A DNA stretch of 64,000 nt, from the NCBI GenBank assembly GCA_965116905.1, contig OZ220732.1, forward strand, positions 992,001 to 1,056,000. Reading direction: 5' to 3'. This document shows positions 21,584 through 26,106 of the stretch, piece by piece. The notes beneath the pieces are model-generated. The model worked only from the letters and a program-made list of their open reading frames with translations, was not told the origin of the DNA and made no database searches. Origin of the DNA: Longimicrobiales bacterium. Lineage in GTDB: Bacteria; Gemmatimonadota; Gemmatimonadetes; Longimicrobiales; Gaopeijiaceae. Every line of letters starts with the position of its first letter. Position 1 is the first letter of the stretch. Position numbers and translations under genes: made by a program.

Positions 21584-22603
21584 ATGAAGAAGAGGAGCCG
21601 CGCACCGAGCCCGTTTGGCATTGCGGCGCTGGACCTGTTTGCGTCGGCCCTCGGCGCCTTCATTCTGATCGCGGTCGTCATCTTCCCGATGATCGGGGAG
21701 GCCGTGCCGGACATTCCGGCCCCGCCCGCGCCGACCGTCATGGCGGTTCCAACGCCCGACTCGGTCATATGCCCGGTGTGCCCTACATGCCCGGTCGTCG
21801 CCGCCGTCGTGGAGCCGATCGCCTGCCCGGTGTGCCCCACATGCCCGGTTCCGGAACCCGTGCCGGAGACGATCTGCCCGGCAGTTGCCGTACCCGACCC
21901 CGTGGAGTGCCCGGTCTGTCCCACGGTGCCTGCCACGGTGCCTGCACCGGTCATCTGCCCGGAGCCCGCCCCCGCGCCCATCCAGGTAAACGCTCCGCAG
22001 TTCCGGTTCCCCCATCTCGACATCATCATCGCGCTGGACGTCACCAACAGCATGGGCGGGCAGGTCGCCAACCTCAAGGCGGAGGTCGAGCAGCTTGCCG
22101 TCCTTCTGAACCGGATCTCGCCCAGCTTCGGCATCGGGATGGTGGCGTTCGGAGATCGCCGGTGGGAGAGCCCGCTGTTCCTGTTCCCGTTGCGGGAGCT
22201 CTCCGGTCCGGCCGCGAACCGCGATGCGTTCCGCACGTTCGTGAACGGCCTGTCGGTCGGCATGGGAACCGGAAGAGGCAGCAACCCCGACAGTCCCGAA
22301 GCCTTCTACGACGCGCTTTCGGCGGCGTCCCGCATGACCTGGCGGCCGCGATCCGAGCGGAGGGTCGTCGTTCTGGTGACCGACAACCCGGCATACAGCG
22401 ACGAGATCGACCGATCCATACAGGTCGCGACCGGCATCGGACGCCCCGAAGGGCATCGGGTCTCCACGGTCTACGTCAGGACGGGGGGCACGAACACCGC
22501 CACGGAGGAGTTTCTCCAGAGCGTCGCCGACGCCGGCGGTGGTCAGTACGTGCGGGACGTAGGAGGCTCGCTGACGGTCAACCTGCTTCTGTCCCTTTTC
22601 TGA
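21584..22603 (+). CDS. Membrane-anchored vWA protein with Asp-containing TM helix and Cys-Pro repeat linker
   Basis: KKRSR then TM ALDLFASALGAFILIAVVIF; CPVCPTCP repeats; vWA MIDAS-like DVTNSM, VAFGD, LVTD. Confidence 0.75.
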   Translation: MKKRSRAPSPFGIAALDLFASALGAFILIAVVIFPMIGEAVPDIPAPPAPTVMAVPTPDSVICPVCPTCPVVAAVVEPIACPVCPTCPVPEPVPETICPAVAVPDPVECPVCPTVPATVPAPVICPEPAPAPIQVNAPQFRFPHLDIIIALDVTNSMGGQVANLKAEVEQLAVLLNRISPSFGIGMVAFGDRRWESPLFLFPLRELSGPAANRDAFRTFVNGLSVGMGTGRGSNPDSPEAFYDALSAASRMTWRPRSERRVVVLVTDNPAYSDEIDRSIQVATGIGRPEGHRVSTVYVRTGGTNTATEEFLQSVADAGGGQYVRDVGGSLTVNLLLSLF

Positions 22604-22679
22604 CCGGTCCCGCCTGGCTGGCGGCGCGGGCGCGGACCCGTTGGCCCCTGGCCGACGCCGACATCGGGAGCGGGCCCCG

Positions 22680-23594: not shown

Positions 23595-25036
23595 GGCCGC
23601 CCGCACTCCGGAAGGCGAACCCCGCCCAGTTGGGGATTGATGCCGGACTCGAAGCGCATCAGCGGCTTCGGTATGCATCCCGACAGGCGATTGTTGCTCA
23701 GCGTCAACCGTTTCAGGCTGGTCAGGTTGGCCAGTTCGCCAGGTATCTGCCCGGAAAGCTGGTTGCCATTGAGGGCGAGGAGTTCGAGTTGCCGCAGTCT
23801 GCCGAGCTCGGGCGGTATCCGGCCGGCGATCTGCGTGCGGGACAGGCGCAGCCGCTTGAGGCTCGCCAGGTTTCCGAGTTCGGGAGGGATGATCCCGGTC
23901 AGCGGGTTGTTGTACAGGTGCAGGTCCTCAAGGCTCGATATCGCACCCAGTTCGGCCGGAATTTGACCCGAAAGCTGGTTGTTCTCGAGGAACAGCGCCT
24001 TGAGTTTGCGCAGCGAGCCCAACTCGGCCGGAATCGCGCCGGAAAGCTGGTTTCCACCCAGGTTGAGGAGCTCAATCTCCGCCAGGCGCGCGAGGCGGGT
24101 GGGAATCACGCCCCCCAGATTGCGCGCGTTGAGATCGAGCCCCACTACGTTGTCGCCCCGAGACCGAACACCCGTCCAGGATCGCCGGTTCAGGGCGAGG
24201 CGCCAGTTCAGGTCGCCGGTGGTCCCGGCCAGATCGTTTCTCGCGGCGAGCAGCAGCTGGTCGTCGGTGAGCCGCTCTTCGGTGCGTCGCCGCGCCGCCT
24301 CCATGGTCTCGGCCTGTCGCTGCTGCCGGTTCCCCAGCCGCTCGGCTGCGGTCCGGCGCGCCTCGTCCAGCCGCGCCGCCTCCGCCTGACGCGCCTGCTC
24401 CGCCAGGCGGGCTTCCTCCGCCAGCCGTTCCTGCTCGGCCAGGCGGGCTTCCTCGGCCAGGCGGGCTTCCTCGGCAATCCGCTCCATCTCGCGGCGGGCC
24501 TCGTCGGCGAGCCGCTCCTCCTCGGCCAGACGGGCCTCTTCCGCCAGCCGCCGCTCTTCCTCACGCCGGGCGGCGTCGCGGCGGGCCTGTTCCGTGACCC
24601 GCTCCTCGCGAGCGATCCGGCGTTCTTCGGCCAGCCGCTCTGCCTCGGCCTCCAGCTCGTCCAGGCGGCGCTCCTCCTCCGCCTGCCTCTCCGCCTCCCG
24701 GCCCGCTGCCAGCAGTTCCGACAGGCTGGTGCGGTCCAGGTATCCGGTGGCCTCGATACCCCGGTCGGTCTGCCATTCGCGGAGTCCTTGACGGGCTTCG
24801 GGTTCCAGCACGCCGTCGGCGTCGCCGGAGTAGCGGCCTTCGGCGGAGAGTCCCATTTCCACCAGCGCCACGACATCGGTGCCAAGCCCGAGCCGGGCCT
24901 CCAGGGCGGCGGCGCGCTCCTCGGGCGTGAGGGTCCGGTTCCGTGCCACGAACACCATGAGGGCAGCTGCGCCCACGATGATGGTGACGCCGGCGGCATA
25001 TGAGAGACGACGAAGAGCTGCCCCGGGGCGGCGCAT
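23591..25036 (-). CDS. TM + peptidoglycan-binding + TolA-like coiled coil + plant-type LRR protein
   Basis: N-terminal TM; YSGDADGV...LREWQ..RGIEATGYLD (PG_binding_1-like); RLAEEA repeats; about 7 LxxLxLxxNQLSGxIPxELG repeats. Confidence 0.75.
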   Translation of the reverse strand: MRRPGAALRRLSYAAGVTIIVGAAALMVFVARNRTLTPEERAAALEARLGLGTDVVALVEMGLSAEGRYSGDADGVLEPEARQGLREWQTDRGIEATGYLDRTSLSELLAAGREAERQAEEERRLDELEAEAERLAEERRIAREERVTEQARRDAARREEERRLAEEARLAEEERLADEARREMERIAEEARLAEEARLAEQERLAEEARLAEQARQAEAARLDEARRTAAERLGNRQQRQAETMEAARRRTEERLTDDQLLLAARNDLAGTTGDLNWRLALNRRSWTGVRSRGDNVVGLDLNARNLGGVIPTRLARLAEIELLNLGGNQLSGAIPAELGSLRKLKALFLENNQLSGQIPAELGAISSLEDLHLYNNPLTGIIPPELGNLASLKRLRLSRTQIAGRIPPELGRLRQLELLALNGNQLSGQIPGELANLTSLKRLTLSNNRLSGCIPKPLMRFESGINPQLGGVRLPECGRP

Positions 25037-26106
25037 CACCGGCTCCAGACGAGACCGATCTCGGTACGGCCCAGGGCGCGCCTGATGAACAGATCCGGTC
25101 CGCCCTCGGCCACTGTGGTTCCCTGCCGCGACGGCAGCGCGGTCACGCGCGAGATCGCCTCGATCTCGGACTTCTTCCTCGACCCGAGCACCCAATCGAC
25201 CGCTCCCCAGACTCCGAGCACGCTCCCCACACCGATGAACCAGTTGTTTGCGGTTTCGGTCCGGTCCCGCCTGTGCACCGCGGACAGGTACTGCCACTCC
25301 GTGTCGTAGTCCGCCCGATCCGGAACGCCCAGCCAGGGCAGCCACCTCACCGTCGCGTAGGAGCCGCCCGCCATGATGGTGCCCCAGAGGAACTTCCTCT
25401 TCCCCGACTCGCGCCTCGCGGTGGCGTCCCTGTATTGCTCCTCGAGAGCCGGACTGGCCAGCGTGGGGAGCTCTCCTTCCATCGTCTCCATGTCACGCCT
25501 TCCCAGGATGTAGTCGGCGGCACCCCATGAGAGGAGGCCGGCACCACCCAGCAGGACGGCATTCCTGACGGTCCTCGCCGTGGCGTGTCTGTCAACGGCG
25601 GCTTGATGGGAGGCCGAGTCGGCATAGGCGTCCTCGTCTCCCGCCTCGAACACGATCCCGGTTGTAGCAATGGCGACGACGGCCAGCGTCCCTCCCCAGA
25701 ACCACCTTTTCAGGCCCGACGACCGACGCGCCTTCGATCTCTCGTATTGCGCGTGGATGTCCGGGATCACGGACCCCGTCGCTGGGGGCTGCGCTCCGGC
25801 GGACACGGTTCCCACGACCTCGACTTCCGTAGCGAGGACATATCCGATCAGGTCGTCTTCGCCGGGCTGGCCGGGTATCGACACGATATGGTACGGACCC
25901 GACTCTCCGATCCAGTCCAGCGTCGCACCGGCCGCCAGGTTGGCGACGACGGGGCTGGAATCGGACGGATCGAGCCGGACGGCCGCGCCATTGCCGAGCG
26001 CCCTGACCTGTTGGGCCGAAGCGAGCCCGTGTCCGATAGCGGGTGCTGCGAAGGAGACTCCGAGAAACATGAGGCCAGCGCCGACCAGGCCGTGCTTCAG
26101 CTTCAT
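25036..26106 (-). CDS. Secreted/membrane protein with bacterial SH3-like domain and internal duplication
   Basis: Signal peptide; VRLDPSDSSPVVANL..G...GYV; two related units QY....ARR.SG..xxWG...WGAxDxxLG; TGATG coupling to the next gene. Confidence 0.6.
   Translation of the reverse strand: MKLKHGLVGAGLMFLGVSFAAPAIGHGLASAQQVRALGNGAAVRLDPSDSSPVVANLAAGATLDWIGESGPYHIVSIPGQPGEDDLIGYVLATEVEVVGTVSAGAQPPATGSVIPDIHAQYERSKARRSSGLKRWFWGGTLAVVAIATTGIVFEAGDEDAYADSASHQAAVDRHATARTVRNAVLLGGAGLLSWGAADYILGRRDMETMEGELPTLASPALEEQYRDATARRESGKRKFLWGTIMAGGSYATVRWLPWLGVPDRADYDTEWQYLSAVHRRDRTETANNWFIGVGSVLGVWGAVDWVLGSRKKSEIEAISRVTALPSRQGTTVAEGGPDLFIRRALGRTEIGLVWSR

Follow-up and report, generated by a model that had tools for sequence, protein, structure and literature searches.

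A predicted TolQ-like/vWA motor locus that has lost its kinase, FHA, and PP2C genes in a Longimicrobiales bacterium

A channel of the MotA/TolQ/ExbB family is encoded in a marine Longimicrobiales bacterium (phylum Gemmatimonadota) without a gene for any of the canonical partners beside it. Which protein pairs with this channel, and what do the neighboring genes contribute? We address these questions for a locus of four genes in a 64,000-nucleotide stretch of genomic DNA (hereafter, the window).

Organization of the locus

The locus comprises the following features.

21584-22603, + strand: transpore-helix (TPH)-vWA gene, 339 aa, intact ORF
22680-23594, - strand: MotA/TolQ/ExbB-family channel gene, 304 aa, intact ORF
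23591-25036, - strand: kinase-less LRR receptor gene, 481 aa, intact ORF
25036-26106, - strand: SH3 protein gene, 356 aa, intact ORF

All four ORFs have coding-type GC3. The first-pass annotation had described the last three genes as translationally coupled, and both overlaps, TGATG (25038-25034) and ATGA (23594-23591), are present, each preceded by GGAG. By strict pattern match, the TGATG junction recurs in 16 of 23 close relatives, two of the seven misses being contig-end cuts. In the window, the vWA gene lies on the strand opposite to the other three. A sigma-70 promoter scan of the locus returns zero sites, and a terminator scan gives signals no better than chance level. In one sponge metatranscriptome run, the locus is recovered as a 4.2-kb contig. 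Its depth is flat over both strands and the flanks, with a repeated element ~30-fold deeper, and this profile resembles DNA carry-over. Therefore, the contig is not taken as expression.

In agreement with the annotation, no ExbD, MotB, or TonB gene is found at the locus. The three ExbD matches of the genome all lie within its own Tol and Ton operons, which are complete and encoded elsewhere, and the MotB plug (PF13677) has no match in the 97%-complete genome. The annotation had overlooked the Cys/Pro linker of the vWA protein and, in the SH3 protein, the helices and β-hairpin. It had also missed that the same genome contains a second, fuller copy of the locus.

The channel and the vWA protein

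The channel matches MotA_ExbB (PF01618) with 36.1 bits, above the Pfam cut-off of 22.9. Residues P204, T205, G207, G210, T211, T254, and T255 are invariant in all 36 aligned sequences, and the Thr ring is retained. The protein ends ~12 residues past the last helix, and a long cytoplasmic tail is absent (model pLDDT 86). The Foldseek matches of the model at ranks 1-10 are all ExbB/TolQ, with probability 1.0 and E values of only ~0.003-0.008. Structural matches to ZorA, TolQ, and ExbB reach Z scores of 10-11 over ~200 residues, tied with that of a designed helical bundle, and the channel profile has zero matches among PDB sequences. The Pfam score, the Thr/Pro/Gly motifs of the pore, and the monomer fold place the channel in the MotA/TolQ/ExbB family, as first annotated. 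Unlike flagellar MotAB, it neither reaches the MotA equivalog (TIGR03818, 12.6 bits, below the cut-off of 303.8) nor has a partner with the MotB plug.

The vWA protein matches VWA with 24.4 bits (Pfam cut-off 23.8). Its N-terminus is basic (KKRSR...ALDLFASALGAFIL), and its single TM helix carries Asp17, confirming the Asp first noticed there. The Asp is present in 71/71 N-termini, which were recovered by similarity to the Asp segment itself and many of which are close kin. A linker of ~105 aa with a Cys/Pro repeat (CPxCP, 10 CP pairs) separates the helix from the head; its length spans 99-119 aa among 35 Gemmatimonadota proteins, compared with 16-117 aa among 10 others. The head carries MIDAS-type residues (D152-T154-S156, E239, and D267) and is integrin-β-like, its best PDB sequence matches including integrin β-8 (E ~1e-4). 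Across relatives, the Asp helix is constant, and the head is one of two vWA types or a non-vWA domain. An atlas search gives a best value of 0.90 to an unnamed VWA cluster, which serves as a lead only. Given the Asp in every recovered N-terminus, the invariant Thr ring, and the linkage to the channel gene, the vWA protein is predicted to be the Asp-bearing B subunit (axle) of the motor, the role already proposed for it.

Pairs of TolQ-like and TPH-vWA proteins have been predicted with AF3 to form 5:2 motors (Williams-Jones et al. 2025, PMC12204202). By description, the window locus resembles this family, for which Idiomarina iohensis proteins served as the query: a tolQ-like gene is tightly linked to a TM-tethered vWA with a conserved Asp, the SHLS is absent, no exbD, tolR, or motB is syntenic, and the channel has a Thr ring. 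It differs in its Cys/Pro linker and in its single TPH gene, where that report describes a heterologous pair of vWA genes as predominant, not obligatory. The text of that report mentions no kinase, SH3, or leucine-rich partners, and its motor section does not name Gemmatimonadota for the TPH-vWA family. The annotation had called the system undescribed, which does not hold for the core of channel and TPH-vWA protein, already predicted there. A TPH gene lies beside the channel gene in 36 of 37 Gemmatimonadota loci and 33 of 42 others, the loci without it being partly due to short contigs or the 8-kb limit, and there is one TPH gene per locus except in L060. The channel and the Asp-helix vWA protein likely form a 5:2 proton motor.

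Loss of the kinase, FHA, and PP2C

A second locus in the same genome (locus 2) has the order SH3 > kinase-TM-PG-binding-coil-LRR > MotA > FHA > PP2C, plus vWA. Its kinase motifs are intact, and FHA and PP2C are present. In the 64-kb window, there is no tblastn match for kinase, FHA, or PP2C. Locus 2 is of the MotA-FHA-PP2C-kinase-vWA cluster type, with which the window locus shares the channel subfamily (44-69% identity) and the Asp helix. Unlike that cluster, the window lacks genes for kinase, FHA, PP2C, and trypsin-FHA, and it has an SH3/hairpin gene and an LRR ectodomain. In open-access full text, we found no paper evidently treating the cluster, and a search combining LRR, sponge symbiont, and pseudokinase surfaced only unrelated papers.

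FHA or PP2C occurs in 0 of 37 Gemmatimonadota loci, and both occur in 41 of 42 loci of other phyla. The 37 loci divide into 12 with a pseudokinase, 22 without any kinase, and 3 that are cut off. All 12 kinase-bearing loci have lost the β3 Lys and the G-loop; DFG is changed to GFG or GFA in the nine with a C-lobe, and the C-lobe is deleted in three. In quick, midpoint-rooted SH-aLRT trees (fragment L083 excluded; the second tree with 38 of 81 rows), the Gemmatimonadota loci group into a single clade placed within the full systems (SH-aLRT 97 and 99), with at least two events of complete kinase deletion; the position of locus 2 differs between the two trees. The locus-2 FHA is not found in any of 24 congeners, 15 of them motor-bearing, and seven of these 15 have no Pkinase match at all. 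A genome search with the Pfam FHA profile failed to recover the FHA known from this genome and was set aside, so that the evidence for the absences comes chiefly from queries with single proteins against genomes that are 92-100% complete.

These data show that the control layer is gone from the locus, which in our reading descends from a kinase/FHA/PP2C cluster, so that the motor would run without phospho-control. We regard the locus as a phospho-independent version of a predicted 5:2 motor, a version not previously described. Paralogous kinase, FHA, and PP2C of this genome could act in trans.

The LRR protein

The LRR protein consists of a TM segment, a PG-binding domain (PG_binding_1, 27.4 bits, cut-off 23), a helix of ~145 aa rich in E, R, and A (28%, 24%, and 22% of a 144-aa segment; 138-184 aa long in relatives), and a capped plant-type LRR (LRR_1, 70.6 bits, cut-off 20.6). 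The TM core is variable among relatives, consistent with a plain anchor. Judged from its relatives, the protein is the membrane and ectodomain portion of a former Ser/Thr receptor kinase. NCBIfam matches to XopAE, XopL, and internalin are LRR cross-matches far under cut-off and were rejected.

The annotation had taken the LRR protein for a TolA/TonB-like transducer. On such a reading, it would dock at the side of the pentamer and transmit force as far as the outer membrane, the LRR being its effector tip. Its single TM segment and long E/R/A helix do resemble domain II of γ-proteobacterial TolA, its gene is translationally coupled to the channel gene, and the protein is retained after kinase loss. 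However, the SHLS His that is essential in TolA/TonB (PMC10666116) has no counterpart, as none of 33 TM cores contains His. Pfam and NCBIfam give no TonB_C or TolA-III match at E 0.1, the C-terminus being the LRR itself, and the receptor-kinase ancestry is clear. In addition, complete Tol and Ton operons exist elsewhere in the genome, and the membrane-adjacent PG-binding domain would fix the protein in place at the wall. A transducer role is thus quite unlikely. The locus is like ExbBD-TonB and TolQR-TolA in channel fold, Asp/Thr chemistry, and a long periplasmic helix in a neighbor, and unlike them in that the window has no ExbD/TolR domain, SHLS helix, or TonB/TolA C-domain. As for the eukaryotic-type tip, a plant-type LRR is present, but the module is common in this genome, where 14 ORFs have at least two plant-type LRR motifs. 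Overall, the observation behind the annotation is confirmed, and its interpretation is supported in part.

The SH3 protein

The SH3 protein has a signal-peptide-like N-terminus, an SH3b domain, two tandem hydrophobic helical hairpins (four helices), and a C-terminal β-hairpin. Its description as SH3-like is supported by the model (Z 11.3, rmsd 1.9 Å over 68 residues versus 3pvq; model pTM 0.37) but not by Pfam, in which SH3_3 scores only 17.5 bits, under the cut-off of 27. A fold search with the helical part gives generic hairpin matches only. From its sequence, we infer a lineage-specific exported protein with a putative location at the outer membrane. The ending of the window copy in WSR, in place of a terminal aromatic residue, and the pTM of the model speak against this placement. 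In the atlas search, its C-terminal part has a best value of 0.88 to unnamed clusters, again a lead only.

Selection, linkage, and distribution

The dN/dS values are 0.16-0.41 across all four genes, indicating purifying selection. The stepwise loss of genes and domains, together with a receptor split over two ORFs in the relative L030, might suggest that the full cluster is in decay and that the locus is what remains of it. However, reading frames are intact in 22 complete kinase-less loci, dN/dS is 0.08-0.41 by domain with even the pseudokinase at 0.25-0.34, and the motor residues are invariant, so that decay is highly improbable.

The annotation had treated the four genes as one unit, and their linkage is kept in relatives. 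They stay together through five gene orders, one of them fully co-directional (L085), between flanks of many different kinds. SH3 and MotA occur in the same 15 of 24 congeners, one SH3 fragment being found also in a motor-less genome. The loci with both SH3 and LRR are found in 14 of 301 genomes of the phylum, in one family and two genera, so that the linkage is partly due to shared descent.

This confinement to a single family is what would be expected if the motor pair and an adhesin-like or host-interaction SH3/LRR pair were co-inherited passengers that no longer cooperate. LRR modules are, moreover, frequent in this genome and reported to be enriched in sponge symbionts (PMC3977351), and the vWA gene of the window is on the opposite strand. 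Against this, the adjacency of the four genes survives the changes in order and flanks, full-length SH3 homologues are found only next to the motor (25 genomes), and the receptor already belonged to the motor cluster while its kinase was still active. We consider such passengers unlikely.

The loci probably have a horizontal origin, their sequences lying near Acidobacteriota copies. Together with the patchy presence among congeners and the variable flanks, this would suit a Zorya-like anti-phage sensor of envelope damage, constitutively armed by loss of kinase control. The locus is like ZorAB in its MotA-like fold and patchy, mobile distribution; ZorA is among the tied top structural matches, and PADLOC gives a weak ZorA match (E 5e-5) on the TM region of the channel only and no match for the vWA, LRR, or SH3 protein. 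However, the window has no ZorA tail, OmpA-like ZorB domain, or ZorC/D/E, no nuclease/helicase or other effector neighbor is conserved at the loci, and the window version retains no cytoplasmic output domain. A defense role of this kind is very unlikely.

Proposed mechanism

The kinase-less LRR receptor and the SH3 protein are predicted to be the wall-anchored and outer-membrane partners of the motor. The whole explanation, in which a 5:2 motor with LRR and SH3 partners descends from a kinase/FHA/PP2C cluster and has lost its control layer, has in our view a slightly better than even chance of being correct. By comparison with ExbBD, TolQR, and MotAB, passage of protons past Asp17, which would sit within the Thr ring, would drive rotation of the vWA dimer. 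With its linker extended to ~105 aa, the metal-dependent vWA head may grip a target, for which the SH3 protein is the likeliest candidate, on the outer side of the periplasm. The receptor helix of ~150 residues (~22 nm) would bring the LRR to that level as well. The former receptor would provide anchorage to peptidoglycan, which the vWA subunit lacks, and would hold or present the target. The motor would pull on or remodel an outer-membrane element directly, not via a phosphorylation signal.

A fuller account, which we put forward tentatively and at well below even chances, is that an LRR receptor kinase became a pseudokinase, then a truncated pseudokinase, then repeatedly lost the kinase altogether, and ended as a structural subunit of a proton motor. 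In this four-part trans-envelope machine of sponge-associated Gemmatimonadota, an integrin-β-like vWA axle, braced by an LRR arm bound to the wall, would pull directly on an outer-membrane SH3/hairpin protein, and neither TonB/TolA nor a phospho-switch would take part.

TPH-vWA motors are so far predictions only. With four genes and the kinase layer gone, the window locus is a natural minimal TPH-vWA motor and the simplest construct for testing a vWA axle in a TolQ-like pentamer; it could reveal what the axle pulls, and the regulated form at locus 2 provides a built-in comparison in the same genome. The series from kinase to pseudokinase to no kinase points to a job of the ectodomain that is independent of phosphorylation, which constrains the working of the widespread parent cluster.

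Plant LRR receptor kinases, pseudokinases, and kinase-less receptor-like proteins likewise combine an LRR ectodomain and a TM segment with a kinase that is active, dead, or absent. We draw this parallel as an analogy and do not claim common descent with the whole plant receptor protein. Unlike the plant receptors, the proteins described here are bacterial, have the reversed topology with the kinase N-terminal, and carry a PG-binding domain and a coil spacer.

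Components of the locus

The four open reading frames proposed in the first-pass annotation, with both start/stop overlaps, are present in the window sequence:

21584-22603, forward strand, vWA protein with an Asp-bearing transmembrane helix
22680-23594, reverse strand, channel protein of the MotA/TolQ/ExbB family
23591-25036, reverse strand, kinase-less LRR receptor with transmembrane, PG-binding and coil segments
25036-26106, reverse strand, SH3 protein

Pfam matches above cut-off in the four proteins are VWA, MotA_ExbB, PG_binding_1, and LRR. The SH3 protein scores below cut-off for SH3_3, but its AlphaFold2 model resembles SH3b domains (Z 11.3, rmsd 1.9 Å, 68 residues). 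The closest relatives are MAGs titled Gemmatimonadota/Longimicrobiales. Going by isolate codes, many of the relatives may be sponge MAGs and the lineage may be Palauibacter-like. In one run labelled sponge metagenome, 55% of sampled words are present. An order of this type has been described from sponges and sediments (PMC10469786, accessible text).

Predicted motor pair

In the channel, which contains four hydrophobic helices, residues P204-T205-x-G-F-x-G-T211 and F252-x-T254-T255 are invariant in 36/36 aligned homologues from several phyla. The monomer model (pLDDT 86) retrieves ExbB and TolQ as top Foldseek hits with weak E-values (~0.003), and its structural matches to ZorA, TolQ, and ExbB (Z 10-11) are tied with a designed bundle. 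A Zorya-like defence role appears improbable.

Asp17 of the vWA protein is present in all 71 N-termini recovered; one further protein is cut off. By analogy with the known chemistry of MotAB, ExbBD, and TolQR (PMC10666116, accessible text), the Asp helix is very probably the B subunit. The ExbD genes are located in the genome's own Tol and Ton operons, and a genome search finds no MotB plug. A canonical ExbB/TolQ-like gene lies at C1:552499-553356 without an adjoining ExbD match. The system had been put forward as a candidate undescribed one, but this does not hold for the core, since the accessible text of PMC12204202 predicts the same channel and Asp-helix vWA pairing by AF3 for an Idiomarina family. 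For the SH3/LRR version and the pseudokinase series no paper was found, and the gene clusters in Fig. 4c of PMC12204202 could include related loci.

The vWA head carries MIDAS-type residues, and its nearest PDB entries are an uncharacterised protein and integrin beta-8 (E ~1e-4). Across phyla, the Asp helix stays constant but carries different heads, namely vWA of two types or a non-vWA domain without Pfam name. This beta-type head, presumably YfaP-like, has no Pfam match and replaces vWA in Asp-helix proteins of loci L046, L053, L060, L061, and L070, with both head types at L060. Cys/Pro repeats (CPVCPxCP) occupy window 21770-21960 (vWA residues 63-125). Linkers of Gemmatimonadota copies contain 5-12 CP pairs, versus 0-5 elsewhere; the repeats could be segments stiffened by disulfide or metal.

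Loss of the phospho-layer

Judged by sequence, the LRR protein derives from a receptor kinase. We fetched 79 loci around channel homologues, drawn from the best 80 of 94 confirmed stretches. Within the DNA fetched, FHA and PP2C are present at 41 of the 42 loci outside Gemmatimonadota and a kinase at 40, and neither FHA nor PP2C is found at any of the 37 Gemmatimonadota loci. Receptors of these 37 include 12 with a kinase-like domain, 22 without, and 3 cut by contig ends. All 12 kinase-like domains have lost the G-loop, and in place of the beta-3 Lys ten have Thr, one has Ser, and one has Val. The C-lobe is kept in nine, with HRD changed to HLD/HLN and the DFG Asp to Gly, and deleted in three. 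The receptor of locus L043 keeps its pseudokinase and is 80% identical to the window receptor across the C-terminal 246 residues.

In quick, midpoint-rooted channel trees, loci with a pseudokinase group with those lacking a kinase in a single clade (SH-aLRT 97 with 80 rows, 99 with 38 rows). This clade is nested within the full systems and adjoins Acidobacteriota copies and a second copy in the window's genome (locus 2), whose placement is unstable. Complete kinase deletion requires at least two events on these trees. At L053:8007-10752 (Candidatus Spongiihabitans), a channel, an Asp-helix protein with non-vWA head, and a TM/coiled-coil protein occur together; kinase, FHA, and PP2C are all missing within 8 kb, which looks like an independent loss.

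The LRR protein had been read as a TolA/TonB-like transducer. However, none of 33 receptor TM cores contains His; the docking motif is thus absent, and a TolA-like role is quite unlikely.

Locus 2 (C1:3443886-3450666) has intact receptor-kinase motifs, and its channel is 62% identical to that of the window. Its GC content is 64% versus 68% for the genome, and it is the only FHA/PP2C-bearing copy seen in the genus. Among 24 congeners (92-100% complete), single queries with its FHA and PP2C give no match and one weak match, respectively; Pkinase has no match in 7 of the 15 congeners that carry the motor. The Pfam FHA genome search missed a known positive. Cross-talk between the two loci in their shared genome is possible.

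Selection and linkage

Nei-Gojobori dN/dS of window genes against 21-23 close relatives (non-independent pairs) is 0.16 for the vWA protein (0.08 for its Asp helix), 0.25 for the channel, 0.20-0.32 for receptor parts, and 0.21-0.41 for the SH3 protein. The pseudokinase has values of 0.25-0.34. Values of 0.16-0.41 across the four genes make decay of the locus highly improbable.

The 15 of 24 congeners with full-length SH3 homologues are also those with the channel, and the SH3 gene always adjoins the channel gene; one motor-less congener has an SH3 fragment. No full-length SH3 homologue is seen at the 42 loci of other phyla. A database search (best-sharing 7998 candidates scored) returns 55 proteins, each at least 39% identical. 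Across five gene orders the set is kept together:

Order 1, the window arrangement
Order 2, vWA > SH3 > SH3 > pseudokinase-receptor > channel
Order 3, L039, with one inserted gene
Order 4, L085 (second genus), SH3 > receptor > channel > vWA, fully co-directional
Order 5, locus 2 (L002, L004), SH3 > kinase-TM-PG-binding-coil-LRR > channel > FHA > PP2C, converging on the Asp-helix vWA gene

The vWA-first arrangement with tandem SH3/hairpin genes occurs at L029, L031-L038, and L044, and at several of these very large LRR proteins come next.

The channel subfamily is found in 14 of 301 genomes of the phylum, all in one family, which suggests horizontal gain. Linkage is therefore partly shared descent, as would be expected if the pairs were co-inherited yet independent; but the genes remain together in five orders while their flanks vary between genomes, and independence is unlikely.

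Proposed mechanism

Parts, residues, losses, selection, and linkage are established directly; the four-gene unit is probably a motor with a lost control layer. A 5:2 proton motor would turn the vWA dimer. Among 35 Gemmatimonadota proteins the vWA linker spans 99-119 residues; in 10 others its median length is ~55. The receptor helix spans 138-184 residues (~21-28 nm if a single helix). At these lengths, both heads would lie close to the outer membrane. From its signal-like N-terminus, its two hydrophobic hairpins, and its terminal beta-hairpin, which closes with Trp in more distant homologues, we infer that the SH3 protein is an outer-membrane protein. Because the ex-receptor has a wall-binding domain and the vWA subunit has none, we tentatively suggest that the ex-receptor might anchor the assembly to peptidoglycan, with the metal-dependent vWA head gripping the SH3 protein or some other target in the outer envelope.

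Genomic surroundings

A MITE-like element of ~250 bp with CTAG-ended terminal inverted repeats (window 26219-26471) lies ~115 bp upstream of the SH3 gene. The genome contains 8 full-length copies and 43 matches, and empty-site alleles occur in runs X1 and X2. At 14170-27756, the sole imuA-imuB-dnaE2 cassette of the genome is interrupted by ~8 kb: the module and two further genes (DUF222/HNH and DUF1697) separate imuA (27091-27756) from imuB-dnaE2 (14170 to ~18.9 kb).
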